64,000 nt of DNA from Dehalococcoidia bacterium (GCA_034429995.1 DAOUEZ010000003.1:187-64186), one strand, 5' to 3'. Positions 604 through 35,187 are shown, counted from the stretch's first letter. The notes: generated by a model from the sequence alone, not told the origin. Translations and numbers: made by a program.

Positions 604-673
604 CCGCTCATGGTGAGCTTGTCGAACCAGGAGCGGGCGTTCGCTCGTCCTTCGACGGGCTCAGGATGAGCGG
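604..673. repeat. Hairpin repeat copy R1, two modules in opposite orientation
   Basis: Module ccgctcatggtgagcttgtcgaaccaggagcgg then cgctcgtccttcgacgggctcaggatgagcgg. Each module has a ~9 bp stem and a 13 nt loop (TTCGACNNGCTCA or its reverse complement). R1 lies between the nitroreductase start and the cofC 3' end. Confidence 0.8.
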
Positions 674-1369
674 AACGAGGGGCAGGGATGCGAGGAGCTG
701 CCGGCTTCTGGTGCCATTCGGTTGGGCGAGAAGGGCCGCCAGGTCGTGCGGGCGGTCGATGTCGAGGGCTAGGGAAGGGAGCGGGAGCAGCGTGAGGGGC
801 AGGCCGCGCGCCCTTGCCTCGCGCTGGTGGGCGGCAGAGCTGCGGTGGCCGAAGCGGAAGGGGATGGTGCCGGGTGGCTGGAGGGCGAGGGCGTTGGTGC
901 CGCCGCTGCGCGAAGGGCAGAGGACAATCGACGGGTTGGTGTTCATGCGGTTAAGGATAGCCTCTATGTCGGCGGTGGTGGCCAGGGGCACGTCGACGGG
1001 GAGGACGAGAAGGCCGCTGGCGCCCTGCCCAGAGAGCACGTCCGAGGCGAAGGCGAGGGCGGCGTTCAAGCCGCGGGGCTGGGGCGGCTCCCGGATGGCC
1101 TGAGCGCTCAGCCGGCGGGCGAAGGCCAGCACATCGGCGTCGGGGCTGACGACGGCGGTGGTGGCGATGGCGGGCACGTCGGCCAGAAGGCCGACGACAT
1201 CCTCGAGCATGGCCATGACCAGGGCGTGGCGCTGGGCGTCGGAGAGGACGGGCCGCAGGCGGCTCTTCGAGTGGCGCAGGGCTTTGACTGGCACCAGGGC
1301 GGCGATGATGCCTGTTGAAACACTCTGGTGCGCCGTTCGTGGTTCGACAGGCTCGCCACGAGCGGACAT
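608..1369 (-). CDS. cofC: 2-phospho-L-lactate guanylyltransferase CofC (F420 biosynthesis)
   Basis: The segment IIAALVPVKALRHSKSRLRPVLSDAQRHALVMAMLEDV matches the CofC N-terminal motif. The ORF's 5' extension (to 1597) and its last ~20 codons are translations of repeat copies R2 and R1, so the start is placed at the ATG at 1367-1369, inside the repeat. Confidence 0.7.
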   Translation of the reverse strand: MSARGEPVEPRTAHQSVSTGIIAALVPVKALRHSKSRLRPVLSDAQRHALVMAMLEDVVGLLADVPAIATTAVVSPDADVLAFARRLSAQAIREPPQPRGLNAALAFASDVLSGQGASGLLVLPVDVPLATTADIEAILNRMNTNPSIVLCPSRSGGTNALALQPPGTIPFRFGHRSSAAHQREARARGLPLTLLPLPSLALDIDRPHDLAALLAQPNGTRSRQLLASLPLVPLILSPSKDERTPAPGSTSSP

Positions 1370-1414
1370 ACAAAGGTGGTCAAGATCGCTCGCCCTGAGC
1401 TTGTCGAAGGGCGG
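1334..1414. repeat. Hairpin repeat copy R2
   Basis: Modules cgttcgtggttcgacaggctcgccacgagcgg and cgctcgccctgagcttgtcgaagggcgg. The stems carry compensatory changes (cgtgg/ccacg versus catgg/ccatg in other copies). R2 sits in the cofD-cofC junction. Confidence 0.8.
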
Positions 1415-1440
1415 ACAGGGCCCTTTCTCGACGGTCTCCA

Positions 1441-2499
1441 TCACTTCCCTTTCCCTCGTATGGCCTTTAGCACGCGGCGGGCGAGGGCCGCTTTCTCCTC
1501 CATGCCTTTCATTATCGTGTCTGTGACCACTACGTCCAAGCCCAGGGCCTCGATGCGGGCGCGATCGGCGGCGTCGGCGTTGTCGATCACCAGGCAATCG
1601 AGGAAGTCCTCATAGAGCCAGCCTATCTGCCAGGCGCTGACCTCCATGCGCAGGCCCTTCATCATCTTGTCGGCGGGGCCCTTGATGACGGCGCCGCCCA
1701 CGATGGGGCTGACGGCCACCACGCGGGCCTTGGTCTGGCGCAGCGCCTTCCTGACGCCGGGCAGGGCGAGGATGGGCCCGATGCTGACGATAGGGTTGCT
1801 GGGGGCGATGACGATGCCCTCGGCGGCGGTGATGGCGTCGATGACGCCGGGGGCGGGCTTGGCGTCCTCGATGCCGGCGAGCTTGAGGCCGCGGAAGGGG
1901 TCGCGGGCGCCGCGCTTCACCATGTACTCCTGGAAGTCGATCAGGCCGTCGGGGGTCTCGACGCGGGTTTGGAGGGGGTCGTCGGTCATGGGCAGGATGG
2001 TGACCTCGAGGCCGAAGGCGCGGGCGATCTCGGCGGTGGCCTGGGAGAGGGTGCGGCCCTGGCGGAGGAGGTGGGTGCGATGGATGTGGGTGGCCAGGTC
2101 GCGGTCGCCGAGGGAGAACCAGGTCTCGTGGCCGAAGCGGCTGAGGGCGTCGAGGGCCTGGAAGGTGTCGCCGGCCAGGCCCCAGCCGGTCTCGGGGTTG
2201 ACCAGAGGCAGTTTCAGGAATGGCTCGCCACCCCCGCCTGTCCGCCATGCGGACTCCGCCTCTGCGGATGGCGGAGAAGGCGGGGGCATGGATGCCGCCC
2301 CGTTTACGGGGCGGTGTGGAGAGAATTCGCCCGCCAGGTGGTAGATGACGATATCGATGTCGGGGGAGACGTGGAGGCCGAACATCTCGAGGTCGTCGCC
2401 GGTGTTGGAGACGACGGCGACGTCCTTCTGGGGCACAACCTGGACGAGGCCCTGGAGGAAGCGCGCGGCGCCCACGCCGCCGGAGAGGACGGTGATCAT
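1441..2499 (-). CDS. cofD: LPPG:FO 2-phospho-L-lactate transferase CofD
   Basis: N-terminus MITVLSGGVGAARFLQGL and the C-terminal VSPIVGGAVIKGPADKMMKGL motif are typical of CofD. Its ATG overlaps the upstream TPR gene stop (ATGA). Confidence 0.85.
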   Translation of the reverse strand: MITVLSGGVGAARFLQGLVQVVPQKDVAVVSNTGDDLEMFGLHVSPDIDIVIYHLAGEFSPHRPVNGAASMPPPSPPSAEAESAWRTGGGGEPFLKLPLVNPETGWGLAGDTFQALDALSRFGHETWFSLGDRDLATHIHRTHLLRQGRTLSQATAEIARAFGLEVTILPMTDDPLQTRVETPDGLIDFQEYMVKRGARDPFRGLKLAGIEDAKPAPGVIDAITAAEGIVIAPSNPIVSIGPILALPGVRKALRQTKARVVAVSPIVGGAVIKGPADKMMKGLRMEVSAWQIGWLYEDFLDCLVIDNADAADRARIEALGLDVVVTDTIMKGMEEKAALARRVLKAIRGKGK

Positions 2500-3980
2500 G
2501 GCTTGGGTGGGGGCTTCTTGCGGGTGCGCTTGCGCTTGGGCTTGAGCGCGCCGACGGCGTGGAGACGCTCGAGGACGCGGCGGGCACCCGGGATGCGCTC
2601 AAGCCGTTCCAACGAGCCGATGAGGTCGTCTAGGGCGCGGGGCTGGTCTTCTGCCTGGGAGAACAGTTCTTGCGCCTGGCGGAGCTTGTCCTTGGCCCTG
2701 GCTAGGTCGAGGCGCTGAAAGAGAGCGAGGCCCAAGAAGAGGGTCATGAATGCTTGGCCTGGGAGATGGTGCAAGTCGCGGTAGAGCGCCAAAGCTTCGG
2801 TCAGGGGCTCATCAGCGTCGTCGGGCTCCTGACGGCTGAGGTGGATCGTGCCGAGGGTGCCGAGAGCCTCGGCGGTTCCCTTTTGGTCGGCCGCCTCTTT
2901 GGAGAGAGCGAGCGCACGGAGGCAGCGGTCGAAGGCCCGCGCGTGGTCACCGCGGTCGCGAGAAATGGCAGCCGCCCTGTCCAGAGCCCAGGCCTGCCGG
3001 GCGAGGTCGCCCTGGTCCGCGTAGAGCTCAGAGGCCGCAAGGTAGGATTGTTCCGCCTTGTCAGCATCCTTGCGCGAGCGGTACACGTCGCCCAGGTCGG
3101 ACAGAACCGCTGCTCTGCCCCTCTGATCGCCGACTTTGTCGAAGATGTCTAGGGCGCGCCTATTGAGTTCCTCGGCCTTCCGCAGGGCGCGAGGGTCGCC
3201 GCGCTGCTGGTACATGTTGCCGAGGTCGCCGAGGCAGCGCGCGCGGCCCTTCTCGTCGCCCAGGCGTTCGCGGGTAGCGAGCGCCTCGGTCAGGCATCCC
3301 TCCGCCTCGTCTAAGCGCCCTTGCCGCCGGTGCACAAGGCCTAGCGAGGCCAACACATCGGCGACAGTGGATTCATGGCCAAGACTTCGGAATATCTCGA
3401 GAGCCTCTTTGTGGTAGCTTTCCGCTGCTTCCAGTCGGCGCTGCTCGTAGGTGGCGAGACCCAATCCCAACAAAGCTACGCCCTCGGGTTCGCGTTCCCC
3501 GGCGCTACGGGCCAGGTCCAAAGCCTGCAGGAGGTGCCCCTCAGCCTCCGCAGGCCGCTGGAGCATGCCGAAATTCCACCCGATGCAGATGTGAAGGGTG
3601 CAGCGGTGGATGTCCTCGGTCGCTGCGGCGAAGGCCTTCTCGTACTGCCGTATGGCACCGGCGTGGTCCCCTGCGGCTTCAAGCCGCTGACCTTCCTCGA
3701 ACGCATTCCGTACGGCGAGTAGAGGGGCGTCGGGCAGACCGTCTACATAGTGTGGGGCGTTGATTATGGTGACGGGTGCGTGGAAATGCTGGGTGGCGGC
3801 TACCAGGGTGCCCATCTGTCGCCGCACAGCTTGCTCGGTAGCAATGATGGAGTCCTTGATCGTCTGATCGCGGCCAGCGGTCACGGCTCCACGGTCGGCT
3901 TGAACAGTGGGTTGCCCGCGAATCCTGTTCCAGAGCCAGCGGGCTGCGGCGGGAACCCATGAGAGCCACGGAATCGCCAC
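2496..3980 (-). CDS. Tetratricopeptide (TPR_12-like) repeat protein with a basic C-terminal tail
   Basis: Multiple 34-40 aa repeats with TPR periodicity, for example ALxxLGxxxxxxGxxxEAxxxxxxALxIxxxxGD. The GTG start overlaps the mutS2 stop and the stop overlaps the cofD start. Confidence 0.7.
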   Translation of the reverse strand: MAIPWLSWVPAAARWLWNRIRGQPTVQADRGAVTAGRDQTIKDSIIATEQAVRRQMGTLVAATQHFHAPVTIINAPHYVDGLPDAPLLAVRNAFEEGQRLEAAGDHAGAIRQYEKAFAAATEDIHRCTLHICIGWNFGMLQRPAEAEGHLLQALDLARSAGEREPEGVALLGLGLATYEQRRLEAAESYHKEALEIFRSLGHESTVADVLASLGLVHRRQGRLDEAEGCLTEALATRERLGDEKGRARCLGDLGNMYQQRGDPRALRKAEELNRRALDIFDKVGDQRGRAAVLSDLGDVYRSRKDADKAEQSYLAASELYADQGDLARQAWALDRAAAISRDRGDHARAFDRCLRALALSKEAADQKGTAEALGTLGTIHLSRQEPDDADEPLTEALALYRDLHHLPGQAFMTLFLGLALFQRLDLARAKDKLRQAQELFSQAEDQPRALDDLIGSLERLERIPGARRVLERLHAVGALKPKRKRTRKKPPPKP

Positions 3981-6346
3981 TATCGTGCTACCTCCACGAT
4001 GGTCACGCCCTCGCCGCCCTCCTTGGGCGGGGGCGTCGAGAGCGATTTTACCAGCGGGTGCTCCGATAGGGCATCGCGGATGCCGCGGCGGAGGGTGCCG
4101 GTGCCCTTGCCGTGGACGATGCGCACCTGGGGCAGGCCGGCGCGGAAGGCGGCGTCCAGGTGCTGCTCGATGAGGGGCATAGCCTCGTCGATGGTCATGC
4201 CGCGCACCTCCAGCTCGGCCGGCGGCGGCTCGGACGGCGGGAGGCTGGTGTCGACGGCCGTGACTTCGGAGGCCTTGTCCACTCCCTCGACCTCGCTGAC
4301 GTTGATCCTGCCGTGGAAGGCGCCCAGGCGGACGGCGAGCTCCCCGACCGCGGTCGGGGGGCCGAGGGCCTCGGCGGGCTGGGAGAGGTCGCGCAGCCAG
4401 AGGCGGTCGCCGGCGGCGATGGGCGGGAGGGGGCCCTTGCGGCGCCTGCGCTTGCGGCGCACCTTCTCCACCCGCTCCTCGACGGCCTCGACCTTCTGCT
4501 TGGCGGCTTCCAGGGCCTCCTTGGCGGCGGCCTCGCGCTCGGCGCGGGCGATCTCCTTGGCGGCGGTGCGCAGGCGGGCGCGAACCTGCTGGAGCTCGCG
4601 CTCCATCTCTAGGCGCGTCCGCTCGATAGTGCGATCGTGCTCGGTGTCCACGGCGGCCAGCTTCTCCGCCAGGCCGGCGCGGATCGCCTCGGCTTCGCGG
4701 CGAGCGATCTGCTCGGCGCGGGCGGCGTCCGCTGCCTGCTGGCGCTCGCGCTGGATCTCGGCGAGGAGGCTCTCGATCTCCTGGCGGTCGGGGGCGATGT
4801 GCTGGCGGGCGCGCTCGAGGATGTCGGGCGGCATGCCCAGGCGGTCGGCGATGGCCAGGGCGTTGCTCTGGCCGGGCAGGCCGATGCTCAGGCGATAGGT
4901 GGGGGCGAGGCTCTCCAGGTTGAACTCCACCGAGGCGTTGACGATGCCCGGCGTCGTGTGGGCGAAGAGTTTGAGCTGGCCGTGGTGGGTAGTGGCGACG
5001 GTGGTGGCGCCGACGTCCAGGAGGTGGTGGAGGATGGCCTGGGCCAGGGCTGTGCCCTCGCTGGGGTCGGTGCCGGCGCCGAGCTCGTCGAGGAGGACGA
5101 GGGTGTTGCGCTGGGCCTCGCTCAGGATGTGGATGATGTTGCCGACGTGGGAACTGAAGGTGGACAGCGACTGCTCGATGCTCTGCTCGTCGCCGATGTC
5201 GGCGTGGACGGCGGCGAACACGGGGACGCGGCTGCCCAGATCGGCGGGGATAGGCAGGCCGGCCTGGGCCATCAGGGTGAGCAGACCGACGGTCTTGAGG
5301 GCGACCGTCTTGCCGCCGGTGTTCGGGCCGGTGATGAGGACGATGGAGTAGGAGTCGCCCACCCAGATGGAGATGGGCACTACCTCGCCGGTGAGCAGAG
5401 GGTGGCGGGCGTTCATCAGACGCAGCTCGGCGGGGCCCTCGGCCAGCCAGGGCTGGTCGTCGCTGAGGTAGGGGAGCTCTTTGGCGTCAAGCGACTCGCC
5501 CAGATTGGCCTTGGCCAGGGCCAGGTCGAGCTCGGCCAGCGTGTCCACCGTCATCTCGATGTCGGCGGCGGCCTGGCCGACGCGGGCGCTGAGGGCGCGC
5601 AGGATGCGCTCGACCTCGCGTTGCTCCTCGAGCTGCAGCTCGCGCCAGGTGTTGCCCAGCTCGACGGCCTCCAGGGGCTCAAGGAAGACGGTGGCGCCGC
5701 TGCTGGAGACGTCGTGGACGATGCCCGGCAGTTGGCCGCGCAGCTCGGCCTTCACAGGGATGACGTAGCGGCCGTCGCGGAGGGTGACAATGGGCTCCTG
5801 GGCCGCTTGCCGGCCGGTGGACGAGGAGAGGATGTGCTGGAGCTTGGCGGTCAGGCGGTCGTGGGCCAGGCGGGTCTCGCGGCGGAGCTCGGACAGGATG
5901 GGGCTGGCGGCGTCGGTTACCTCGGAGCGGGGGTTGATGCAGCGCGAAATCTCCGCCGCCAGGGGCGAGAGGTCGGCCAGTCCCTCGGCCAGGGCGGTGA
6001 GCAGGGGCAAGTTGATGCCGAGGCGCTGGATGGTGTTGCGCAGCGATACGGCCAGGCTGAGGGTGGCCTGGATGTCGAGGAGCTCGGCGGGCTCCAGGAC
6101 GCCGGCCAGGGCTGCCTTCTGGACCTGGGGACGCACGTCGTGGGCGCCGCCCAGGGTGAGGTTGGGCTGCATCTCGAGCAGGCGGCGGGCCTCGGCGGTG
6201 ATCCGCTGGCGGCGGACGACCTCGGCGTAGTCGGAGGACGGGCGGAGGGCAAGGGCCAGCGCGCGGCCGGCGGAGAAGGCGGTGTGCCCGGCCAGGCGGG
6301 CCAGCACCTTGTCGAACTCCAGAGTGGAGAGAGTCTTAGCGTTCAT
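3980..6346 (-). CDS. mutS2: Endonuclease MutS2 (MutS domain plus C-terminal Smr domain)
   Basis: Walker A motif GPNTGGKTV and a C-terminal Smr domain (VHGKGTGTLRRGIRDALSEHPLV). The start is placed at ATG 6346 (MNAKTLSTLEFDKV) because it has an AGGAG Shine-Dalgarno 6 nt upstream. The ORF track extends to 6364. Confidence 0.9.
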   Translation of the reverse strand: MNAKTLSTLEFDKVLARLAGHTAFSAGRALALALRPSSDYAEVVRRQRITAEARRLLEMQPNLTLGGAHDVRPQVQKAALAGVLEPAELLDIQATLSLAVSLRNTIQRLGINLPLLTALAEGLADLSPLAAEISRCINPRSEVTDAASPILSELRRETRLAHDRLTAKLQHILSSSTGRQAAQEPIVTLRDGRYVIPVKAELRGQLPGIVHDVSSSGATVFLEPLEAVELGNTWRELQLEEQREVERILRALSARVGQAAADIEMTVDTLAELDLALAKANLGESLDAKELPYLSDDQPWLAEGPAELRLMNARHPLLTGEVVPISIWVGDSYSIVLITGPNTGGKTVALKTVGLLTLMAQAGLPIPADLGSRVPVFAAVHADIGDEQSIEQSLSTFSSHVGNIIHILSEAQRNTLVLLDELGAGTDPSEGTALAQAILHHLLDVGATTVATTHHGQLKLFAHTTPGIVNASVEFNLESLAPTYRLSIGLPGQSNALAIADRLGMPPDILERARQHIAPDRQEIESLLAEIQRERQQAADAARAEQIARREAEAIRAGLAEKLAAVDTEHDRTIERTRLEMERELQQVRARLRTAAKEIARAEREAAAKEALEAAKQKVEAVEERVEKVRRKRRRRKGPLPPIAAGDRLWLRDLSQPAEALGPPTAVGELAVRLGAFHGRINVSEVEGVDKASEVTAVDTSLPPSEPPPAELEVRGMTIDEAMPLIEQHLDAAFRAGLPQVRIVHGKGTGTLRRGIRDALSEHPLVKSLSTPPPKEGGEGVTIVEVAR

Positions 6347-6358
6347 GACACTCCTGTT

Positions 6359-6529
6359 GCTCATCCTTCGACGGGCTCAGGATGAGCGGGATGATTCACC
6401 CTACGAGGAACCGCTCATAGTGAGCTTAGCTAGAATAATCCGCTCATGGTGAGCCTACTTATGGTAGTCCGCTCATGGTGAGCCTACTTATGGTAGTCCG
6501 CTCATGGTGAGCTTGTCGAACCATGAGCA
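6359..6529. repeat. Hairpin repeat copy R3 with an internal 2x29 bp tandem unit
   Basis: A perfect module gctcatccttcgacgggctcaggatgagcgg at 6359-6389. Then ccgctcat(a/g)gtgagc partial units at 6410, 6441, 6470 and 6499. The unit tccgctcatggtgagcctacttatggtag is duplicated exactly at 6439-6467 and 6468-6496, and a full module lies at 6499-6529. Confidence 0.85.
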
Positions 6530-6798
6530 CGGGATAGTCGTCTGAGGTCGTCCCAGTCGCCTGTAGTCAAAGCCTCCTTCTTCCTCCTCGACCAACCCTT
6601 CAGTTGTCTCTCGCGCTGAAAGGCATCTTCTCGAGAAGGGAATTCCTGATGAAAGACGAGCTGGACGGGTCGGCGAGAGTGGGTGTAGCCCGCGATCTGT
6701 CCGCTTTGGTGAGCGGCGAGCCGTCTTTCGAGATCGTCGGTGTGACCCACATAGTAGGAGCCGTCGGCGCAGCGGAGGATATAGACGTAGAAGCTCAC
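6502..6798 (-). CDS. GIY-YIG nuclease family protein (UPF0213 / YhbQ-like, 98 aa)
   Basis: FYVYILRC...YVGHTDDLERRLAAHQSG...RERQLKGWSRRKKEAL is the canonical GIY-YIG motif set. The last ~11 codons (LSRAHGSTSSP) are encoded by repeat R3. Confidence 0.85.
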   Translation of the reverse strand: MSFYVYILRCADGSYYVGHTDDLERRLAAHQSGQIAGYTHSRRPVQLVFHQEFPSREDAFQRERQLKGWSRRKKEALTTGDWDDLRRLSRAHGSTSSP

Positions 6799-6816
6799 CG
6801 AAGGAGCCCGGGTCCT

Positions 6817-6896
6817 CGCTCATGGTGAGCTTGTCGAACCATGAGCGGGAGGGCGTCAGCGGGTGCCTCGTCCTTCGACAGGCTCAGGACGAGCGG
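6817..6896. repeat. Hairpin repeat copy R4
   Basis: cgctcatggtgagcttgtcgaaccatgagcgg (perfect) followed by cctcgtccttcgacaggctcaggacgagcgg, which has a compensatory stem variant cgtcc/ggacg. Confidence 0.85.
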
Positions 6897-6900
6897 ATGG

Positions 6901-7000
6901 GGGGCGAGGGCCAGGGCGCGGCCGGCGGAGAAGGAGCTGTGCCCGGCCAGCCGGGCCAGTATCTTGTCGAACTCCAGGGTGGAAAGGGTTTTAGCGTTCA
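6901..7000 (-). pseudogene. Degenerate duplicate of the mutS2 5' end (codons ~1-34), start codon lost
   Basis: ~87% nucleotide identity to 6245-6346. The reverse-strand translation reads NAKTLSTLEFDKILARLAGHSSFSAGRALALAP versus MutS2 NAKTLSTLEFDKVLARLAGHTAFSAGRALALAL. The ATG is replaced (ttcatgac becomes ttcagggt). The fragment overlaps the GNAT gene stop. Confidence 0.75.
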
Positions 7001-7497
7001 GGGTTCTGTTCCTGCCTTGCAGATAGTTTTCTCCCCAGCACGACCGAGGTTTCCCGCTGGCGGGCGGGGATGTCCCAGTACGTCCGCAGGAGGGCGTCGC
7101 CGTCGGGCAGGAGGCGGAAGCCGTGCTTCTCGTAGAAGCGGATGGCCCAGGTGGCGTCCGCCCAGGTGCCCACCAGGAGACGCTCGGTGGTCGTCAGGCC
7201 CATGACGTGGCGGACGAGGGCGCTGGCGATGCCCCGGCGCTGGCGGTCGGGCAGCACGTAGCAGTGGCGCACCAGGGTCACGTCCCTGATCGGCTCGTAG
7301 CCGATGACGCCCGCCAGGCGTCCGTCCTCCTCCCAGGCGTAGAAGGTCATGCGGGCGGCCTCGCGCTCCAGCTCGTCCAGGGGCATGTAGGGCTGGTGGT
7401 AGCAGTCGGCGGGGATGACGCTCTCGTAGGCGCTAGCGGCGTCGTTGATGACGGCGAACATGCGGCGGAGGTCGGCCTGGTTGCAGGGTCTAATCAC
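6991..7497 (-). CDS. GNAT family N-acetyltransferase
   Basis: The acetyl-CoA binding motif region RQRRGIASALVRHVM...RFYEKHGF is typical of GNAT. Confidence 0.8.
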   Translation of the reverse strand: MIRPCNQADLRRMFAVINDAASAYESVIPADCYHQPYMPLDELEREAARMTFYAWEEDGRLAGVIGYEPIRDVTLVRHCYVLPDRQRRGIASALVRHVMGLTTTERLLVGTWADATWAIRFYEKHGFRLLPDGDALLRTYWDIPARQRETSVVLGRKLSARQEQNPER

Positions 7498-7512
7498 TAG
7501 GCGTGGTCTCCA

Positions 7513-8877: not shown

Positions 8878-9037
8878 GACTTTCCTTTCGTCCATTATAT
8901 CCCTCGTCAGGGAGGGGCTAAAGCCCCTGTCCAGCGCGGCAGTTGTCAACCTGGTTAGGGACGGGGGATGATTCCTGACTGGGGTGGAGGGAAGGCAGCC
9001 AGAAGGGAGTCGGACTCATAGCAAAGCAAAGGAGCAC

Positions 9038-11629: not shown

Positions 11630-11637
11630 GGCCCTAG

Positions 11638-17946: not shown

Positions 17947-20358
17947 CTACTCCCCACCCCTCTCCGTCTTGATCCAGAGCTTGTGGCCGTCGGTGGATAT
18001 CTGCACGTCGCCGTGGCGGTCGGTGCGGAAGACGGGGCGGCTGCCCAGCCTGTCCAGCGTCTGGGGCGCTGGATGGCCGTACCAGTTGTCCTCGCCCACG
18101 GAGATGACGGCCGTCAGGGGCTCCACCGCCGCCAGGAAGGCGGTCGAGGTGGACGCGCCCGAGCCGTGGTGGGCCACCTTCAGCACGGGCGCGCGCATAT
18201 CAGCGTCGTTGCTTACCAGGTACGCTTCGCCCTCTGCTGCGATGTCCGCCGTCAGGAGGAAGGCGGCATCCCCCAGGCTGACCCTGAGCACCAGCGAGTT
18301 GTCGTCCTCGTCGGCGGCCGGCAAGAGTCCCGGCGGCGGGTGGAGCACGGAGAGGGTGGCGCCGCCGCCCAGGTCGAGCCACTGGCCGGCGAACGCCTCT
18401 CGCTGGGGGATATCCTCGGCGGCGATGGCCTCCTGCCAGGCGTGGAAGAGGGGGCAGTCCTTGGTCAGTGCAGGTGCAAGCACCTGGTCCACGTCGTAGC
18501 GCTCGAGGACGGTCACCAGGCCGGCCAGGTGGTCTTGGTCGGGGTGGGTGGATATTACCAGGTGGAGGTGGCGATCCCAGAACGGCAGGTGGCGGCCGAG
18601 AGCGGCGGTTATCGCTTCGCCGCTGGGGCCGCCGTCCACCAGGATGTTGTGGCCGGCTGGGCTGCGAATGAGGATGGCGTCGCCCTGGCCGATGTCGAGG
18701 AAGGTGACGCTCAGGCGGTCCCCGGGCGAACCCAAGATGACCAGCCAGACGAGGATCGTGGCCAGCGCCAGCACGATGGCGATGCCCAGGGTCGGTAGGA
18801 CGGCGAGCGGGCGGTTCAGGCCCGACAGGAGATCGCCGGCCCAGGCCGGCGGCTGAGGCAGGGTCAGCTTCGCCGGGCGGCGGGCCGTCAGCCAGACGAT
18901 GCCGGCGAGGGCGGCGTAGTAGGCCAGGGCATGGGTGCTGGTGAGGCCGTCGACTGATACAGCGGCGAAGGGGAGGTCGGCCAGCATCTGCACGACCGCC
19001 ACCATGTAGGCGACAGGGGCCCAGGTTATCCAGCCGAGGAAGGTGCCCAGGGTGGGGGCGATCATGCCGCCGGCGGCTGTCAGGGCCGAGCTGACCATTA
19101 TCACGGCGAAGGCGGGCACGGTCAGCAGGTTGGCCGGTATGGCGATGAGGGAGATGCGGTGAAAGTTGACAGCGATGATGGGCAGGGTGAAGGCGATGGC
19201 GGCCATGGTGACGGCCAGCAGCTCGATGACTGCTCGCAGGGGGCCTGCCAGCTCGCGGTCGGGGCTCCAGCGGGCGAGAGCCGCCTCGATGCGCGTCCGC
19301 AAGGGCGACGAGAAGACGGTGAGGCCGAGGGCGGAGGCAAAGCTAAGCTGAAAAGAGATGTCCTTCATGAGCGGCGGGTCGTAGGCTGTCATGCCAGCTC
19401 CCGCTAAGGCGAGCCCCTGGAGGGCACCGCTCTGGCGGCCGAGGGCGGTGGCCACGACGTACATACCGCCCATGATGGCCGCTCGCTGGACGGAGGGCTG
19501 GCCGCCCACAAGCATCGAGTAGGCGATGATGGCCAGCAGGGCCAGCCAGGCAGCGGGCCGGCGGCCGATGAGCCAGGCGAGGGCGGCGATGAATAGCCCC
19601 GCGACGAGGGTCACGTTGTAGCCGGAGACGGCGACCAGGTGAGAGGTATTGGTGTCGTTGAGGTCTTCCTTCAGGTCGTCGGGCAGGGAGGCTCGTCGGC
19701 CGAGGAGGATGCCCTGGGCGAGGGCGGCCTCGGGCTCCGGCAGGGCATCCTCGAGGGCTGAGGACAACTCGCCGCGCAGGTCGTAGATCCAGGTGCGGAT
19801 GGGGTTGCCCTGGCCTGTGTCGAGCAGGGACGTGCTGGGGTAGTTGACGATGGAGCCGATGCCCTGGCGGGCCAGGTAGTCGCGGTAGTTGAAGTCGTCG
19901 AGCACGGGCGGCGTCTCGAGCTTCCCCTCCAGCTCGAGGAGGTCGCCGTAGTCGTAGCGGGGGAAGAGGCCGCCGCGCATGAGAACGCCGCCGGAGGTGC
20001 TCTGCCAGCGGCCATCGACCAGCAGCTCGCGGACGGAGAGGCGCAGCCTGAGTGAGCTGCCCCGCTCGTCGGGCTCGCCGGAGACGACGGTGCGGAAGCG
20101 GACGGCAGGGCCATCGTTGTGGAGGGCGATCCCCTGGGGGTCGGCCGATGGCAGGCTCGACTGGTAGAGCCAGGCGCCGCCTACCAGAAGGGCGGCTGCC
20201 GTAGCGGCCCAGAGTAGGGCGAAGGCAGCGCGGCGGGTGGTCAGAGGTACGATGGCTGCCAGGAGAGCGGCGGCCGCTATGGCCCAGGGGCTGCCCTGGG
20301 CGAAGGCTGCCGCTGCCATGCCCAGCAGCCAGCAGAGGGCCAGGTAGCCAAGGATCAT
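17947..20358 (-). CDS. comEC: DNA internalization competence protein ComEC/Rec2 (with C-terminal metallo-beta-lactamase domain)
   Basis: Polytopic membrane N-terminal part and a C-terminal MBL motif VISTHPDQDHLAGL. Confidence 0.85.
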   Translation of the reverse strand: MILGYLALCWLLGMAAAAFAQGSPWAIAAAALLAAIVPLTTRRAAFALLWAATAAALLVGGAWLYQSSLPSADPQGIALHNDGPAVRFRTVVSGEPDERGSSLRLRLSVRELLVDGRWQSTSGGVLMRGGLFPRYDYGDLLELEGKLETPPVLDDFNYRDYLARQGIGSIVNYPSTSLLDTGQGNPIRTWIYDLRGELSSALEDALPEPEAALAQGILLGRRASLPDDLKEDLNDTNTSHLVAVSGYNVTLVAGLFIAALAWLIGRRPAAWLALLAIIAYSMLVGGQPSVQRAAIMGGMYVVATALGRQSGALQGLALAGAGMTAYDPPLMKDISFQLSFASALGLTVFSSPLRTRIEAALARWSPDRELAGPLRAVIELLAVTMAAIAFTLPIIAVNFHRISLIAIPANLLTVPAFAVIMVSSALTAAGGMIAPTLGTFLGWITWAPVAYMVAVVQMLADLPFAAVSVDGLTSTHALAYYAALAGIVWLTARRPAKLTLPQPPAWAGDLLSGLNRPLAVLPTLGIAIVLALATILVWLVILGSPGDRLSVTFLDIGQGDAILIRSPAGHNILVDGGPSGEAITAALGRHLPFWDRHLHLVISTHPDQDHLAGLVTVLERYDVDQVLAPALTKDCPLFHAWQEAIAAEDIPQREAFAGQWLDLGGGATLSVLHPPPGLLPAADEDDNSLVLRVSLGDAAFLLTADIAAEGEAYLVSNDADMRAPVLKVAHHGSGASTSTAFLAAVEPLTAVISVGEDNWYGHPAPQTLDRLGSRPVFRTDRHGDVQISTDGHKLWIKTERGGE

Positions 20359-20921
20359 GGCCCTACGGTGATCAGGTCGCGGATCTGGTCGAATACGGAC
20401 TGGGGGATGAGCTTGCGCTCGACGAGCTCTTCGATGCGAGAGAAGGGGCCGTCGCGCTCGCGGGAATCGACGATGCTCTGGGAGCGCATCTCGCCGATGC
20501 CGGGGAGGGAGTCAAGGACGGCGGCGGGGGCCGTGTTGATGTCAACCAGCTCGTTCTGCGAGGCCTGGGCGGAGCCCAGGACTGCCTGCTCGCCGAGGCG
20601 GGGCACCAGCACCTGGTCCTCGTCGTGCAGGCGGCGGGCGAGGTTGATGGCCTCCACGTCGGCATCCGCGGCGGGGCCGCCGGCGGCCTCGACGGCGTCT
20701 ATCCAGCGGTCGCCATCGTTGAGGAAGTAGACACCGGGACGATTCACGGCGCCGGCGATGTAGACCTGAATTTCGGAGGCAGAGGGCGTTTCGCCCAGGT
20801 TGATCTCTAACGGCTGTGGGCCCTGCAATTGCCTATCGACAAAGGCGCCCATGCCAATAAGCAGGGGCGCAGCCATCAGGGCGATGACCAGCCAGCGATA
20901 GCGCTCCACCCAGGCAAGCAA
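20355..20921 (-). CDS. comEA: Competence protein ComEA (helix-hairpin-helix DNA-binding)
   Basis: N-terminal TM segment, SLBB-like region (QVYIAGAVNRPGVY) and C-terminal HhH (VDINTAPAAVLDSLPGIG). The gene overlaps the comEC start by 4 nt. Confidence 0.8.
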   Translation of the reverse strand: MLAWVERYRWLVIALMAAPLLIGMGAFVDRQLQGPQPLEINLGETPSASEIQVYIAGAVNRPGVYFLNDGDRWIDAVEAAGGPAADADVEAINLARRLHDEDQVLVPRLGEQAVLGSAQASQNELVDINTAPAAVLDSLPGIGEMRSQSIVDSRERDGPFSRIEELVERKLIPQSVFDQIRDLITVGP

Positions 20922-22849: not shown

Positions 22850-22890
22850 GCTGCAACGGGTTGTTAGACGGCGGCTGGGCCACAGCGGTC

Positions 22891-25680: not shown

Positions 25681-25701
25681 GGAAGAGAGGGAGGGAGAAT
25701 C

Positions 25702-28525: not shown

Positions 28526-28645
28526 AGGAAGAACACCAGTACCGGCCACACGGGCAATAGAACACTTCCCCTGGGCTAGCGCTCCAAGGGCAGCGCTCGT
28601 GTTGATCAAGCCCAAGTGATAGCTTGCCGCCAAGCGAGGCGGCCT

Positions 28646-29116
28646 CTAGGACACCGGTCGGAAGTACTCGATGTCGCTGATCTCCCCCTTGCGCTCGTCG
28701 CGCCAGACGGGCTCCAGCCGCATGCCGATCTTCACCGCGTCCTTGGCCTTGTCCGGATCGCTGAGGTCAACCTCGCCCAGGATATGACCCAGACAGCTAT
28801 CGGCGCCGTCCAGCTTGATGAAGAGGGTGGCGATAGGCGGCGGCGGCAGGCCCAGGAAGGGCACGTAGCAGATGGTGAAGCCCTCCAAGGTTCCCTGGGG
28901 TCCTACCTCCACCCACTCTTCGGTGGAGACGAAGCACCTCTCGCAAAAGGGGCGAGGCGGCAGGAGGACCCGCCGACACTGAGGGCAGCGCACCCCGAAG
29001 ATCTTCTTGCTGTCCCTTAGTTCCCGGAAGAAGCGGCTGGCAAACCTGCCCGCCGTATAGCGGAAGGGCAGGTTCCAGGTCCCCGGCATTACCAGAATTT
29101 CCTCTTCCTGCGTCAT
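28646..29116 (-). CDS. DUF35 Zn-ribbon/OB-fold protein (thiolase partner)
   Basis: CPQCRRVLLPPRPFCERC zinc ribbon followed by an OB-fold. Confidence 0.75.
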   Translation of the reverse strand: MTQEEEILVMPGTWNLPFRYTAGRFASRFFRELRDSKKIFGVRCPQCRRVLLPPRPFCERCFVSTEEWVEVGPQGTLEGFTICYVPFLGLPPPPIATLFIKLDGADSCLGHILGEVDLSDPDKAKDAVKIGMRLEPVWRDERKGEISDIEYFRPVS

Positions 29117-29134
29117 GGCCTTGTTCTCCCGTTC

Positions 29135-30307: not shown

Positions 30308-30310
30308 GGC

Positions 30311-31462
30311 TCACCCCCGCTCCAGAATTGCCACGCAGTTGGTGGGGGCAGCAGCTCCGGCAGGGGCGCTCAGGCCATGGGCCAGGGCCAGCCTAGCTCC
30401 CGCCACCTGCCGACCGTGGGCCTCCCCCCGCAGTTGGAGGGCGGCCTCGGCAGCCCGCACCAGCCCCGAGGCGCCGAACAGGTTGGTGCAAAGAGACCCC
30501 CCAGAAGGATTGACCGGTAGCTTGCCGTCCATCTCAGTCGTTCCTTCCTCGATCAGCTTTGCCCCCTGGCCGGCCTCGGCGAAGCCCAGGGCCTCGTAGT
30601 CCATCAGCTCGTGGAAGGAGGTAGCCTCGTGGACCTCCGCCAGGTCGAATTCGTCCAGAGGGCGTTTAGTGCCGGCCATCTGATAGGCGCGTTGGGCCGC
30701 CGCAGCCAGAGAGGGGATCTCGGCCAGGTCCTTGCTGCCCATCTCGTAGCTCTCGATGGCCCAGCCAATGCCCCGGATCCAGACGGGCTTGTCGGTGATG
30801 CGCCGCACCACGTCTTCGCTGGCCAGGATGAGTGCCACGGCTCCCACCGACTCCGGCGGGCAGTCGAGTGCCTTCAGGGGGTAGGAGACAGGCCCTGAAG
30901 CAAGCACCTCCTCCAGAGAGACGGGCGAGCGCAGGTGAGCGTAAGGGTTACGGGCGCCATTGGCGCGGTTCTTGATCACCACCTTCGCCGCCTGCTCCTC
31001 GCTCACGCCGTACTTGTGCATGTAGGCGTTAGCCTGCATGGCCATGGTGATAAGGTAGTTACGGCCTACAGGGCGACTGAACAGGGCGTCGAATATGATC
31101 CTGGTCACCGCGTCGATGGCCGCCTCGCGGTGGCCGTGGCCGGCCACCAGGGCGACATCGAATAGGCCCGAGGCTATGCGCAGGTAGCCATAGACCAGGG
31201 CCATGATGCCATCCTCGGCTGCATGGCTGGAGTCCTTGAGGTAGCCGCCGATAGCCATGCAGGTATGCATATCGGAGATGGTGCGGCCATCGATGGCATC
31301 CCAGCCGGAGGCGATGACTGTATCCAGGTCGCCCCGATCCAGAGCGGCGTCCTCCAGGGCCCGCTTGGCGGCCTCGAAGTCGCTCTCGTAGTATACGTAG
31401 TGGCCCTTCGACTCTTCGTGCTTGGTCTGACCAATGCCGACGATGGCCACTCGTCTGGGCAT
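30311..31462 (-). CDS. Thiolase-domain protein (SCP-x type), paralog
   Basis: N-terminus PRRVAIVGIGQTK. A 3 nt spacer separates it from the downstream thiolase gene. Confidence 0.75.
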   Translation of the reverse strand: MPRRVAIVGIGQTKHEESKGHYVYYESDFEAAKRALEDAALDRGDLDTVIASGWDAIDGRTISDMHTCMAIGGYLKDSSHAAEDGIMALVYGYLRIASGLFDVALVAGHGHREAAIDAVTRIIFDALFSRPVGRNYLITMAMQANAYMHKYGVSEEQAAKVVIKNRANGARNPYAHLRSPVSLEEVLASGPVSYPLKALDCPPESVGAVALILASEDVVRRITDKPVWIRGIGWAIESYEMGSKDLAEIPSLAAAAQRAYQMAGTKRPLDEFDLAEVHEATSFHELMDYEALGFAEAGQGAKLIEEGTTEMDGKLPVNPSGGSLCTNLFGASGLVRAAEAALQLRGEAHGRQVAGARLALAHGLSAPAGAAAPTNCVAILERG

Positions 31463-31666
31463 ATCGTTTTCACCTCCTTTTCCGCTTGTTCATCGGCCCG
31501 CCTGCCCACAAGCAGGCGAGCAGGGAAAAGAATATCACAGATGTTTGAGATAGATAAGGCAATCGGGCCAGAGATTGAGTTCTTTTGGGGAAGAAGTTCT
31601 GATATAATGCCTGGCTGACGGCAGGCGGACCTGCCGTACATCATGTTCAGGTAAGAGGGAGTTGCC
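31463..31666. promoter_or_regulatory. Lower-GC divergent promoter region with a TATAAT box and an 8 bp hairpin
   Basis: TATAAT at 31602-31607. Hairpin ACGGCAGG-cgga-CCTGCCGT at 31619-31639, just upstream of the thiolase start at 31667. Confidence 0.3.
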
Positions 31667-32821
31667 ATGCCAGACAGAGTAGCCATCGTCGGCGTGGGCC
31701 ATACTCAGTTCAGGGCCACCAGCCCCGGCGTATCCTACAAGGAGCTCATGTTCGAGGCCGCCACCAGGGCCTACGCGGACGCCGACATCGACCCCCGCCG
31801 CGATATCGATAGCTTCGTCTGCTGCTCGGAGGACATCACCGAGGGCACCAGCATCTTCGACGAGTACGTGCCGGACCAGATCGGCGCTGCCCTCCGGCCG
31901 GTGCACACGATCGGCGGGGACGGCCTGCAGGGGCTGGCCGCCGCCTACATGCAGATCCTGACCGGCGCCTTCGAGGTGGTGGCGGTGGAGGCCCATAGCA
32001 AGGCCTCCAACATCCTCACCCCCCATCACATCCTGGCCCTGGCTCTTGACCCCATCTTCGTCCGTCCCCTGGGGGCCCATCCCCACTTCGTGGCCGGCCT
32101 GGAGATGAGTCGCTACCTGGCTCAGTCCGGCACCAGCCGCCAGCAGTGCGCCCACGTGGTGGCCAAGAATCGGGGGAATGCCTTATTCAATGATGCCGCC
32201 GCCTACGCAGCGGACCTGGAGGCGGAGGACGTCCTCGAGAGCGAGCCAGCCTTCTGGCCCCTGAGCCGCCTGGAGATCAGCGCGCCGGCCGACGGAGCGG
32301 TGGTGGTGGTGCTGGCCTCGGAGACGAGGGCCAAGGCTCTTGGCGTTCAGCCGATCTGGATTCTGGGGGCCGGCTGGTGCAGCGATAGCTCCGCCCTGGA
32401 CAGCCGGCAGTGGGGCATTGCTGCCTACGCTCGCCTGGCCGCCGAGCAGGCCTACCGCCAGGCTGGCATCAGCAGCCCCAGCCGCGAGATCAACTTCGCC
32501 GAGGTGGACGACACCTTTTCCTATAAGGAACTCCAGCACCTGGAGGCCCTGGGCGTCTTCCGGCCGGGCAGGGCAGGGGTGGAGACGGAGGAGGGTGCTA
32601 CCCAGGTGGACGGCAAGTTCCCGGTGAACCCCTCGGGAGGGAGCCTGGGCGTGGGCCATCTGGCCGAGGCCAATGGTCTGCAGAAGGTGGTGGAGGTCGT
32701 GAGCCAGCTACGAGAGGAGGCCGGGCCGCGCCAGATACCGGATGTCAAGGTGGGCCTGGCCCAATCGTGGCGGGGCGTTCCTACCGCCACGGGCGCGGTT
32801 GTCATACTGAGCAGGGAGTAA
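31667..32821 (+). CDS. Thiolase-domain protein (SCP-x type)
   Basis: N-terminus PDRVAIVGVGHTQF with thiolase N- and C-terminal domains. Confidence 0.75.
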   Translation: MPDRVAIVGVGHTQFRATSPGVSYKELMFEAATRAYADADIDPRRDIDSFVCCSEDITEGTSIFDEYVPDQIGAALRPVHTIGGDGLQGLAAAYMQILTGAFEVVAVEAHSKASNILTPHHILALALDPIFVRPLGAHPHFVAGLEMSRYLAQSGTSRQQCAHVVAKNRGNALFNDAAAYAADLEAEDVLESEPAFWPLSRLEISAPADGAVVVVLASETRAKALGVQPIWILGAGWCSDSSALDSRQWGIAAYARLAAEQAYRQAGISSPSREINFAEVDDTFSYKELQHLEALGVFRPGRAGVETEEGATQVDGKFPVNPSGGSLGVGHLAEANGLQKVVEVVSQLREEAGPRQIPDVKVGLAQSWRGVPTATGAVVILSRE

Positions 32822-32826
32822 GAACG

Positions 32827-33990
32827 ATGGGATTGCGAAGAGTGGCTGTAGTCGGTGCGGGCATGACCAAGTTCATGCGCCGCGCCCTGGAGACGGGCCG
32901 CGAGCTGTCCTGGCAGGCAGCCAGCATGGCCCTGGAGTCCTGCGATCTGACCCTTGAGGACGTCGACGGCGTGGTCATTGGCACCGCTCCTGACACCTTT
33001 GACGGCGTCCACATGAAAGGCGAGTATCTGAGCGACGGCTGCGGCGCCTGGCAGAAGCCGGTGATGCGCGGCTACGTGGGCGGCGGCACCGGTGTCTTCT
33101 CCCCCATTCAAGGCTGGTATCACGTGGCCTCTGGCCTCTTCGACGTCGTGCTGGTGGTAGGGGAAGAGAAGATGTCCTCCTGCCACCCTCATCCTCAGGG
33201 CGCTTTCCTCACCATCTTCGATAACATGCTGGAGCGTCCCCTGGAGCCCAATCTGATCTGGATCTTCGCCCTGGAGATGCAGCGCTACATGGAGGCGCAC
33301 GGCCTCAGCAAGCGAGACATCGCTCTGGTCTCGGTGAAGAACAAGCGCAACGCCCTGGATCATCCCTGTGCCCAAGTGGCGGAGGACATCAGCGTCGAGG
33401 ATGTGCTTAACTCGGAGATCATGGTCTGGCCGGTGAGCCGCCTGGACGTAAGCCCGGTGAGCGATGGTGCCGCCGCGCTGGTGCTGGCCGCGGAGCATGT
33501 GGCTAAGCGGATGACCGACAAGCCGGTGTGGATCGACGGCGTGGGCTGGCACCTGGACAGCGCCTACTGGACGAACCGCGACCTGTACTATCCCAAATAT
33601 GTGGAGTACGCCGCCCGTATGGCCTATCGCATGGCAGGCATCACCGAGCCGCGCAAGCAGATCAACGTCGTCGAGCCCTATGACCCCTTCTCCTACAAGG
33701 AGCTGCATCACCTGGAGGGGCTGCTTCTGTGCGGTAAGGGAGAGGCGGCCAAGCTCACTGCCGACGGGGTGACCCAGCGCAACGGCGACCTACCGGTCTG
33801 CCCCTCGGGTGGGCTGATGGGGGTGGGCAACCCGATCGCCGCTTCCGGCGTGATGAAGGTGGCCGAGATCTTCTGGCAGCTACGGGGAGAGGCCGGCAAG
33901 CGGCAGGTGCCTGGCAAGCCCATCACCGGCCTGGCCCAGGCCTGGGGCGACCTGATGCAGGTGGGCACAGTAGTGGTGTTGCGCATCTAG
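32827..33990 (+). CDS. Thiolase-domain protein (SCP-x type), paralog
   Basis: N-terminus GLRRVAVVGAGMTKF. The start ATG 32827 is in frame with the track ORF. Confidence 0.75.
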   Translation: MGLRRVAVVGAGMTKFMRRALETGRELSWQAASMALESCDLTLEDVDGVVIGTAPDTFDGVHMKGEYLSDGCGAWQKPVMRGYVGGGTGVFSPIQGWYHVASGLFDVVLVVGEEKMSSCHPHPQGAFLTIFDNMLERPLEPNLIWIFALEMQRYMEAHGLSKRDIALVSVKNKRNALDHPCAQVAEDISVEDVLNSEIMVWPVSRLDVSPVSDGAAALVLAAEHVAKRMTDKPVWIDGVGWHLDSAYWTNRDLYYPKYVEYAARMAYRMAGITEPRKQINVVEPYDPFSYKELHHLEGLLLCGKGEAAKLTADGVTQRNGDLPVCPSGGLMGVGNPIAASGVMKVAEIFWQLRGEAGKRQVPGKPITGLAQAWGDLMQVGTVVVLRI

Positions 33991-34011
33991 AACCAGCGGG
34001 AGGGAAGGCAA

Positions 34012-34515
34012 GTGACAACAGATAGGGAATTTCCTGGCACCCCCCTCAGCGACAGCGACATCAGCGAAGGCAAGGTCTTGATAGTGGAACACGATCCCAA
34101 CGCCCGTTACGCCTGGGACGCCGGCATCGCCATCGGGCGCTTCCTGGCCGAGCTGAAGAAGGGCCGCATCGTCGGCCGCGAGTGTCACCGCTGTCGGCGC
34201 ATTATGGTGCCGCCACGCATGTTCTGCGAACAGTGCTTTCGGCCCACCGACCGCTGGGTCGTCTTGAAGGACAGCGGGCGGGTGAATACCTACTCCATCT
34301 CCTACATCCGCTGGGACGCCAGTCGCGTCAAAGAGCCCACTATTCCCGCCGTCATCGAGATCGACGGAGCGAGCAAGGGGATGGGGATCATGCACTTCCT
34401 GGGGGAGGTAAAGCCCGAGGACGTGCAGGTGGGCATGAGGGTGAAGGCGGTGTGGAAACCACCGCGGCAGCGGGAGGGCTCCATTCTGGATATTAGATAC
34501 TTCCGCCCCTATTAG
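34012..34515 (+). CDS. DUF35 Zn-ribbon/OB-fold protein
   Basis: CHRCRRIMVPPRMFCEQC zinc ribbon. Confidence 0.75.
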   Translation: MTTDREFPGTPLSDSDISEGKVLIVEHDPNARYAWDAGIAIGRFLAELKKGRIVGRECHRCRRIMVPPRMFCEQCFRPTDRWVVLKDSGRVNTYSISYIRWDASRVKEPTIPAVIEIDGASKGMGIMHFLGEVKPEDVQVGMRVKAVWKPPRQREGSILDIRYFRPY

Positions 34516-34528
34516 GAGGTCTTGCGTC

Positions 34529-35011
34529 ATGGGTTCCCCGGAGCAGATCAGCCAGATCGAGGACATCCGCTATGTGTACGGCGCTATCCCGGTGAACTTC
34601 GCCTACACGATGGGCGTGGCCGGCGAGCGCTTCTTCCGGGAGCTTATGGAGAACGGGCGGTTCATGGGCACCCGCTGCCAGCAGTGTCAGTACACCTACC
34701 TGCCACCCCGCCTGTATTGTGAGCGCTGCTTCGCCAGCCTGGATGACCAGTGGGTGGAGGTGAGCTCGCGGGGCACCGTCGAGGCCTTCACCGTCGCCCA
34801 TCTGGACCTGGAGGGCCAGCCCGTGGCCGAACCGCAGTTGCTGGCCCTCATCCGCCTGGAAGGGGCGGACGGGCTCCTCGTGCATCGGCTGGGCGAGACC
34901 AGGGCCGAGGACGTGGACATCGGCTTGCCGGTAACGGCAGTTTTCCGCCCTCGACGGCAACGCAAAGGCTCTATTCTGGATATCCGATACTTCAGGCCTG
35001 TTGCCTCTTGA
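34529..35011 (+). CDS. DUF35 Zn-ribbon/OB-fold protein
   Basis: CQQCQYTYLPPRLYCERC zinc ribbon. Confidence 0.75.
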   Translation: MGSPEQISQIEDIRYVYGAIPVNFAYTMGVAGERFFRELMENGRFMGTRCQQCQYTYLPPRLYCERCFASLDDQWVEVSSRGTVEAFTVAHLDLEGQPVAEPQLLALIRLEGADGLLVHRLGETRAEDVDIGLPVTAVFRPRRQRKGSILDIRYFRPVAS

Positions 35012-35104
35012 GCCAGGCGAATAACTAGGGTAAGGCGGAGCATCTCCGCGTGGCGACCTTCTGGCACCTTCGAATGATGAAGGCTGTTGAAAAAGCGCCC
35101 TTGT

Positions 35105-35187
35105 TCGCCCTTCGACACGCTCAGGGCGAGCGATTTGAGGTACCTCTGCGTATCTCCGCTCGTGGTGAGCCTGTCGAACCATGAACG
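35105..35187. repeat. Hairpin repeat copy R5
   Basis: cgcccttcgacacgctcagggcg has a covarying gccc/gggc stem. The second module is ccgctcgtggtgagcctgtcgaaccatgaacgg. R5 is intergenic, between the DUF35 gene and the thiolase-DUF35 fusion. Confidence 0.8.

Follow-up and report, generated by a model that had tools for sequence, protein, structure and literature searches.

The stretch analysed here (the window) is 64,000 nt of a Dehalococcoidia bacterium genome (GCA_034429995.1, DAOUEZ010000003.1:187-64186), a chromosomal region of housekeeping genes with 64.6% G+C, including the F420 biosynthesis genes cofC and cofD, mutS2, selA, recO, recR and complex I genes. Its best-named relatives are Dehalococcoidia, SAR202 and Chloroflexi metagenome-assembled genomes (MAGs). 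At its gene junctions are ten hairpins of ~33-37 nt with the loop TTCGAC-NN-GCTCA and a covarying stem, which pair up as five inverted doublets (602-675, 1331-1420, 6355-6532, 6814-6898, and 35099-35190). Set among them is the gene for a small GIY-YIG nuclease, and it is the relation between this gene and the hairpins that is considered below.

602-638, - strand: hairpin copy 1, stem CCGCTCCTGG/CCATGAGCGG and loop TTCGACAAGCTCA on the - strand; -8.5 kcal/mol, 40.3 bits; a (-,+) doublet with copy 2, within the 3' end of the cofC reading frame
639-675, + strand: hairpin copy 2, stem GCTCGTCC/GGATGAGC with one G.T, loop TTCGACGGGCTCA; 41.3 bits
1331-1367, + strand: hairpin copy 3, in the composite at 1303-1447
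1384-1420, - strand: hairpin copy 4, in the same composite
6355-6391, + strand: hairpin copy 5, 41.1 bits; directly upstream of the ribosome-binding site (RBS) and start codon (6346) of mutS2
6496-6532, - strand: hairpin copy 6, 42.7 bits; sense with the nuclease gene
6502-6798, - strand: GIY-YIG nuclease gene, 98 aa, GTG start; Pfam PF01541, E=1.4e-20
6814-6850, - strand: hairpin copy 7, 16 nt upstream of the nuclease start; -11.2 kcal/mol, z -5.3; a (-,+) doublet with copy 8
6862-6898, + strand: hairpin copy 8, 45.6 bits; outer edge of the nuclease/hairpin block, abutting a mutS2 relic
35099-35135, + strand: hairpin copy 9, in the composite at 35073-35217
35154-35190, - strand: hairpin copy 10, in the same composite

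Hairpin copies in the window

The loop motif TTCGACNNGCTCA, with up to one mismatch allowed, occurs 12 times in the window against 1.29 expected, a number reached in none of 100 shuffles, and a closing stem of 8-10 bp is present at 10 of the 12. A covariance model built from 135 independent copies, all from other organisms, recovers exactly these ten, at 36-46 bits; the next-best match is at 16 bits. As single-stranded DNA, all ten are predicted to fold into the hairpin (-5.8 to -11.2 kcal/mol).

An earlier note on this DNA had described modules at five loci (604-673, 1334-1414, 6359-6529, 6817-6896, and 35105-35187), and motif count, stems and covariance model bear out every one of them; the stem variants it gave (catgg, cgtgg, catcc, cgtcc, cgccc) are all present. 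Whether the motif exceeds chance, a question the note had raised, is answered by the counts above and by its conservation across phyla (below). The constant 13-nt loop it proposed holds for the window copies, except that one loop reads GCTCG instead of GCTCA (1343-1355); the copy at 1384-1420 has a weak outer stem. Its placement of the copies at gene junctions within same-strand gene strings is correct for all ten, though the cofC reading frame (608-1420) passes through doublets at both ends, crossing both hairpins of 602-675 before its stop. Its reading of recurrent short peptides as translations of the hairpin unit is borne out: FDKLRA, VEPRT and HGSTSSP are encoded directly by the units, and SLSNHER and RQAQDER were read off the sequence. 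It had missed the inverted-doublet arrangement, the loop and stem deviants, and the half-hairpin array and ~145-nt composites described below.

A GIY-YIG nuclease gene bounded by hairpins

No more than 6.3 kb separates eight of the ten copies from the nuclease gene. The protein's sole Pfam match, PF01541, covers residues 3-74, with no extra DNA-binding domain, and NCBIfam has no named family for it. Y6, Y16, R26, H30 and E63 are invariant in an 18-sequence alignment of the clade, which also has an extra conserved C-terminal helix (WSR-KKEALI-GDW) followed by a tail that is encoded by the hairpin itself: the last nine codons and the stop lie inside hairpin 6496-6532, with the TGA in its 3' stem arm. 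On the other side of the gene is the doublet 6814-6850/6862-6898.

This arrangement recurs. The best 120 domain homologs, found with a query from which the tail had been removed, are mostly 98 aa long and end in AHGST[GS]SP; the hairpin-encoded C-terminal peptide is present in 87 of them, and the tail AHGSTSSP is common to most. Many homologs are on short contigs. Those in a Lysobacterales MAG (L182) and an alphaproteobacterial MAG (L133), 54-58% identical to the window protein, likewise lie between hairpin copies. In 80 metagenome loci fetched with the tail-trimmed 18-sequence protein alignment only, there are 153 hairpins in 337 kb, and their positions are not random: 35 sense copies and no antisense ones lie 1-50 nt past the end of the domain, 31 antisense copies and one sense copy lie within 50 nt upstream of the gene, and there are almost none beyond 500 nt from it, so that most of these contigs carry hairpins only beside the gene. 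With a relaxed family pattern that admits loop variants, a hairpin is found at the 3' end of the gene in 61 of 78 loci and upstream in 57 of 76, against 10 of 3096 control windows. There is a physical link between the GIY-YIG gene family and the hairpin, with position and orientation fixed, which supports the earlier note's choice of the gene at 6502-6798 as a candidate partner.

What is conserved in the hairpin

For covariation, loci were fetched via the protein rather than the motif to avoid circularity, and copies were picked by the loop alone, giving 135 distinct copies. Some 67% of stem cells pair, compared with 47.7% in shuffles; the covariation score is 0.467, compared with 0.173, and none of 500 shuffles reaches it. 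Sliding the partner by 1-3 columns leaves a score of at most 0.19. The covariation predicted by the earlier note is therefore real, and holds in this larger sample, but its ~9 bp stem was too long: family-wide, structural conservation is confined to the inner ~4 bp. The four positions adjoining the loop form a pair in 81-96% of copies, each with two or three kinds of pair, and covary strongly; the outer six are paired in only 33-68%, with weak covariation. The 3' arm GARCGG is kept as sequence even where the 5' arm fails to match it. This persistence without pairing, together with the strong inner and weak outer pairs, indicates that the conserved object is a loop plus a short stem plus a sequence-specific 3' arm.

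The conserved parts are thus two single-stranded boxes (TTCGAY and RCTCA), the short closing stem, and GARCGG. Across hairpin sets from many taxa the flanks are not conserved, only the hairpin is, and in logos of 197-288 copies the core is the loop, with no conserved bases beyond the stem. Variants retain both boxes, while the two bases between them become three, or a whole extra stem-loop; with such an insert, the boxes behave as the strands of an internal loop. A small hairpin of the form GCTCA-NNN-TGAGC was also considered and rejected, because it is absent from subfamilies whose 3' arm is CGAAC or TGAGG. Covariation, enrichment and the link to the gene together support the earlier note's view that, as in REP/RAYT systems, what is under selection is a folded nucleic-acid structure.

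Distribution across bacteria

A broader search pattern, with the loop and only three bases of each arm fixed, matches 101 stretches of virus-labelled contigs and has at least 120 matches in a collection of species-representative genomes. Among the matches listed are Chloroflexota/Dehalococcoidia; Alphaproteobacteria (Devosia, Caulobacter, Henriciella, Sphingomonadales); Betaproteobacteria (Gallionella, Sulfuricella); Gammaproteobacteria (Methylococcales, Crenothrix, Lysobacterales); Myxococcota, Acidobacteriota, Nitrospirota, Binatia, Thermodesulfobacteriota and Elusimicrobia; and one cyanobacterium and one actinomycete MAG, with several genomes represented by multiple loci. Many of the genome matches are likewise inverted doublets, 35-90 nt apart. 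The hairpin family is more than a local set of recent copies. A full-text literature search for the loop sequences gave chance matches only.

Other arrangements occur as well. A Nitrospirales MAG (L168, 943-1395) has five copies all pointing one way, of which three are evenly spaced at 47 nt; this is a direct tandem array, not a set of inverted doublets.

Composite elements and a half-hairpin array

Two of the window doublets, both (+,-), are part of larger palindromic units, and one junction of the nuclease block has a tandem array; the doublets at 602-675 and 6814-6898, both (-,+), are gene-free.

1303-1447: palindromic composite of ~145 nt containing copies 3 and 4, at the overlap of the cofD stop and cofC start
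6411-6512: tandem array of 3.5 units of 29 nt, score 148
35073-35217: second palindromic composite of ~145 nt, containing copies 9 and 10, between ChsH2-like and thiolase-like genes

The two composites share outer inverted ends, in alignment GATGAWGNCTGTTGAAA ... TTTCAACAGNCWTCATC. These ends are not conserved in other taxa. The composites look like a lineage-specific unit resembling a miniature inverted-repeat transposable element.

Read in the sense of the nuclease gene, each 29-nt unit of the array starts with the 3' loop box and 3' stem arm (GCTCA-CCATGAGCGG), the half in which the hairpin is best conserved, and continues with a spacer of 14 nt. The array could be a set of half-sites for the nuclease protein. 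A comparable array follows the nuclease gene in a syntenic relative (L311, 4360-4600). Contigs essentially identical to the window come from a JGI metagenome and from the MAG GCA_964608485.1; those with identical CofD show no presence/absence differences from the window other than one tandem unit, the array being longer by 29 nt in L226-L228, which are otherwise ~100% identical.

Turnover among close relatives

Four syntenic relatives (L310, L311, L312, and L313), with CofD 79-88% identical, allow individual sites to be compared. The cofD/cofC junction is empty in L311 and L313, where the genes overlap by ATGA; in the window, ~117 nt with a doublet separates them, ATC stands where cofC ancestrally had its ATG, and the reading frame opens at another ATG, upstream of the hairpin 1331-1367. 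No target-site duplication could be defined for this insertion. In L310 and L312 the junction is filled by hybrid hairpins, CGTCATTC-TGAGCAARGCGAA-GAATC. The doublet between cofC and a nitroreductase gene is common to the window, L310 and L311, and is inverted with a different spacing in L312.

At the junction between a GNAT gene and mutS2, the window (6347-6990) and L311 have the nuclease block, L310 (1825-3189) a 405-aa open reading frame (ORF) with no Pfam family on record, L312 (2927-3382) an EVE-domain gene, and L313 (3362-3531) nothing; it appears to be a local insertion hot spot. L311 also has the same hairpin-RBS-ATG junction as copy 5 and mutS2. With sites filled in some close relatives and empty in others, the elements evidently come and go.

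Two further observations were made at these junctions. The hybrid hairpins at the filled cofD/cofC sites of L310 (8040-8110) and L312 (8030-8180), accompanied there by CTGTCACCC-TGAGCCCGGCGAA-GGGTCTGTC, are a second hairpin family, which lengthens the cofD reading frame in those genomes. In the window, the first 33 codons of mutS2 are copied at 6901-7001 (- strand), directly after the GNAT gene, which is where mutS2 starts in L313. This relic is 88% identical to the functional mutS2 start (6346) and 91% to that of L313; its frame is intact, most differences are silent, and 3 of 33 residues differ. It stops 4-5 nt before the hairpin 6862-6898, and looks like a hairpin-adjacent recombination breakpoint, with a foreign mutS2 5' allele that came with the nuclease block.

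Comparison with known systems

The closest parallel is SsnA of Neisseria meningitidis (Chenal et al., Nat Commun 2025), a 94-aa single-domain GIY-YIG protein (CDD cd10448) that binds the hairpin repeat NTS as single-stranded DNA only, and one strand only, and cuts a few bases upstream of the hairpin; the mutants Y6A, Y17A and E64A are inactive (PMC11893778). Its gene is flanked by NTS copies, with hundreds of copies at gene borders; related hairpins, termed SRM, lie on either side of homologous genes in numerous phyla; and the authors liken the system to insertion sequence (IS) elements and to REP/RAYT (PMC11893778). The characterised Ssn enzymes act on single-stranded DNA only, with no binding of RNA, and their discoverers present them as the first nucleases known to combine site specificity with cleavage of single-stranded DNA alone; in Neisseria, SsnA reduces transformation by NTS-bearing DNA (PMC11893778).

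The likeness extends to several features: a single-domain GIY-YIG protein of ~95 aa; a gene between inverted copies of its own hairpin; further copies, often doublets, scattered at gene borders; and spread across phyla. Y6, Y16 and E63 of the window protein are within one residue of SsnA Y6, Y17 and E64, as positions compared rather than aligned. The hybrid hairpins of L310 and L312, compared with NTS, suggest that the strand CGCTCAT..TGAGC..GTCGAA may correspond to the NTS strand that is cut.

The window also encodes ComEC (17947-20358, - strand; Competence, DUF4131 and metallo-beta-lactamase domains) and ComEA (20355-20921, - strand; SLBB and helix-hairpin-helix), so the organism has the core channel for uptake of single-stranded DNA, the substrate of the Neisseria enzyme (PMC11893778).

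Hairpin type follows nuclease clade. The Shinella plasmid locus L225 has a canonical Ssn with four SRMs around it, while Sphingomonas and Methylobacterium homologs (53-56% identical to the window protein) have their own loop variants. The hybrid hairpins of L310 and L312, with NTS-like outer parts and a loop of the TTCGAC..GCTCA family, suggest that the two hairpin families are related. The two can also be found together: two Devosia loci (L110 and L178) have canonical NTS-like SRMs (GTCATYCCCGCGAAAGCGGGRAYC) as well as TTCGAC..GCTCA hairpins, as separate families in the same genomes.

By sequence, the window protein is 45% identical (80 bits) to the UPF0213 protein BH0048 and 40% identical (56 bits) to the Shinella protein, used as a proxy for canonical SRM-flanked Ssn; the latter reaches only 33 bits against BH0048. 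UPF0213 proteins are of the same size with a single GIY-YIG domain, and include the closest sequences with solved structures, BH0048 of B. halodurans (1zg2, E=1e-20) and EF2693 of E. faecalis (1ywl, E=6e-14); B. subtilis YazA is another member. They differ in lacking the WSR-KKEALI-GDW helix and the hairpin-encoded tail, which are extras of the window clade. We know of no function and no hairpin repeat partner described for UPF0213, and a literature search gave nothing relevant.

REP/RAYT and IS200/IS605 systems share the enzyme gene between inverted hairpin repeats, the gene-free inverted doublets in extragenic positions, and recognition presumed to be on folded single-stranded DNA. Here, however, the flanked enzyme is a GIY-YIG nuclease instead of a Y1 HUH transposase, and the 5' GTAG-type tetranucleotide of REP repeats (GTAG or GGAG, ahead of a GC-rich palindrome) is not conserved in the hairpin logos. 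To our knowledge, no transposition chemistry has been described for GIY-YIG enzymes of ~98 aa. Integron attC sites are likewise imperfect hairpins at gene borders that fold as single strands, with structure mattering more than sequence, but the partner gene here is a nuclease and there is no integrase among the 50 window ORFs scanned. The R/L boxes (GTTRRRY) that attC sites carry were not seen in the hairpin logo, no dedicated search for them having been run.

Alternative explanations and the preferred one

If these were classical REP or REPIN sequences served by a RAYT (an IS200/IS605-type Y1 HUH enzyme) elsewhere in the genome, with the GIY-YIG gene a frequent neighbour, then the extragenic inverted doublets would be accounted for, as would an asymmetric conserved motif with its stem and the way in which, within subfamilies, particular stem positions repeatedly hold non-Watson-Crick pairs. 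The earlier note had in fact proposed a RAYT or IS200-like gene as a candidate partner. None is found: the 50 scanned window ORFs include no transposase or RAYT, and when ORFs within 1.5 kb of the hairpins in 221 loci were clustered, they proved to be phage or gene transfer agent structural genes and housekeeping genes, with no recurrent transposase family or other enzyme. Flanking by inverted repeats is the signature that identifies RAYTs for REPs; here the gene so flanked, at fixed distance and orientation, is the GIY-YIG gene. With the REP tetranucleotide also missing from the conserved core, this explanation is highly improbable. A role at the RNA level, as intercistronic stem-loops for termination, stabilisation of the upstream mRNA, or processing, would fit the covarying stems and the position of copies between co-oriented genes; the hairpin should also fold in the transcript, where it may affect expression as a side effect, and one copy is directly before the mutS2 RBS. 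There is no Rfam match at gathering thresholds on either strand of the whole window, however, and the stems have no following T-run. Copies run both with and against transcription, mostly as inverted pairs, and some are within the ends of reading frames; G.U-type wobbles are not favoured on one strand. A tight link to a DNA nuclease, with opposite orientations on the two sides of its gene, has no rationale in RNA, and the characterised Ssn enzymes do not bind RNA (PMC11893778). The RNA processing site suggested by the earlier note has no positive evidence in its favour, and an RNA-level explanation as a whole seems very unlikely.

The repeats could instead have been there beforehand, with the GIY-YIG gene a selfish, homing-type gene that inserts at them and neither propagates nor uses them. 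The gene is exactly inside a (-,+) hairpin pair, and gene-free (-,+) doublets exist; its presence at the GNAT-mutS2 site varies among relatives; many homologs are on short contigs, as multi-copy genes are; and the proteins are 54-58% identical across classes and phyla. Even so, the hairpin would still be the nuclease's recognition element, making this a sub-case of a nuclease/target pair rather than a distinct explanation. Hairpin variation tracks protein variation (Sphingomonas, Methylobacterium, canonical Ssn), which fits co-evolving pairs, and the 80 protein-fetched contigs mostly have hairpins nowhere but beside the gene. We regard an independent homing gene as unlikely, if less so than the other two.

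The explanation preferred here, and in our judgement the probable one, is that the hairpins are the cognate DNA elements of the nuclease encoded at 6502-6798, the two forming a functional nuclease/target pair of the Ssn type. Several points weigh against it. The published SRM search sequence, HGTCWYN(0-2)YYVSBRHN(0-5)WNVSBRGN(0-2)RNCYNB, has no match in the window, L182 or L133, although canonical SRMs are recovered with it around the Shinella Ssn and in those Devosia loci where the TTCGAC..GCTCA hairpin is present as well. NTS is conserved in its stem and 5' flank (GTCAT), whereas the window hairpin is conserved in its 13-nt loop with the two boxes and in the 3' arm, its 4-bp inner stem being variable. 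Since the nuclease is nearer to UPF0213 than to canonical SRM-flanked Ssn, its activity might differ, and it is from the Ssn enzymes that hairpin binding, single-strand specificity, active strand and cut site are extrapolated. The asymmetry between G.T wobbles and A.C mismatches is mixed and subfamily-specific, and does not single out a folding strand. The 101 virus-labelled contigs, ~900 kb selected by hairpin, offer no support, with only one GIY-YIG gene; as these loci sample dispersed copies, this is what would be expected for repeats acted on in trans. Finally, the nuclease might move the repeats or might only use or target them, and the same two readings exist for the characterised Ssn family.

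Possible mechanism and significance

By analogy with the Ssn enzymes, one strand of an element would fold when DNA becomes single-stranded, as in replication, repair, or the entry of transforming DNA. The nuclease would then bind the folded stem and boxes, strand-specifically, and nick the single-stranded DNA a few bases to the 5' side. Hairpin units might thereby be mobilised or propagated in the manner of REP/RAYT, the doublets being non-autonomous derivatives of a hairpin-gene-hairpin unit; hairpin-bearing single-stranded DNA might instead be trimmed, or its recombination limited; or both might occur.

A bolder form of this proposal can be offered only tentatively, as possible but the less probable case: that the hairpin-GIY-YIG-hairpin unit is a self-propagating single-strand DNA element, a GIY-YIG counterpart of IS200/IS605 and REP/RAYT, whose nuclease clade is outside the published Ssn family. 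The gene-free doublets and ~145-nt composites would then be its non-autonomous derivatives, and the enzyme's target would be of a novel type, in which a 4-bp stem holds two single-stranded boxes together. Carried horizontally through at least eight phyla, the unit would be reshaping gene starts and ends and marking recombination breakpoints, as at the mutS2 relic.

The principle is not categorically new, having been established by the Ssn work (PMC11893778). What is new is the way the hairpin is built, together with a nuclease clade that apparently falls beyond the published Ssn definition. This points to a large cross-phylum sister group of Ssn, missed by the published search pattern, whose putative target differs in design: its bipartite loop is conserved, its stem varies, and a further stem-loop may be inserted. 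Ssn enzymes have been promoted as tools, for which every nuclease/hairpin pair would be another specificity. A widespread annotation nuisance is also explained, since translation of the repeat accounts for thousands of short hypothetical proteins as well as for odd extensions at protein C- or N-termini (FDKLRA, SLSNHER, HGSTSSP, RQAQDER). For the family itself, the mutS2 relic, the altered start of cofC and the sites that are filled in some relatives and empty in others provide material on whether such elements move or steer the recombination of single-stranded DNA.

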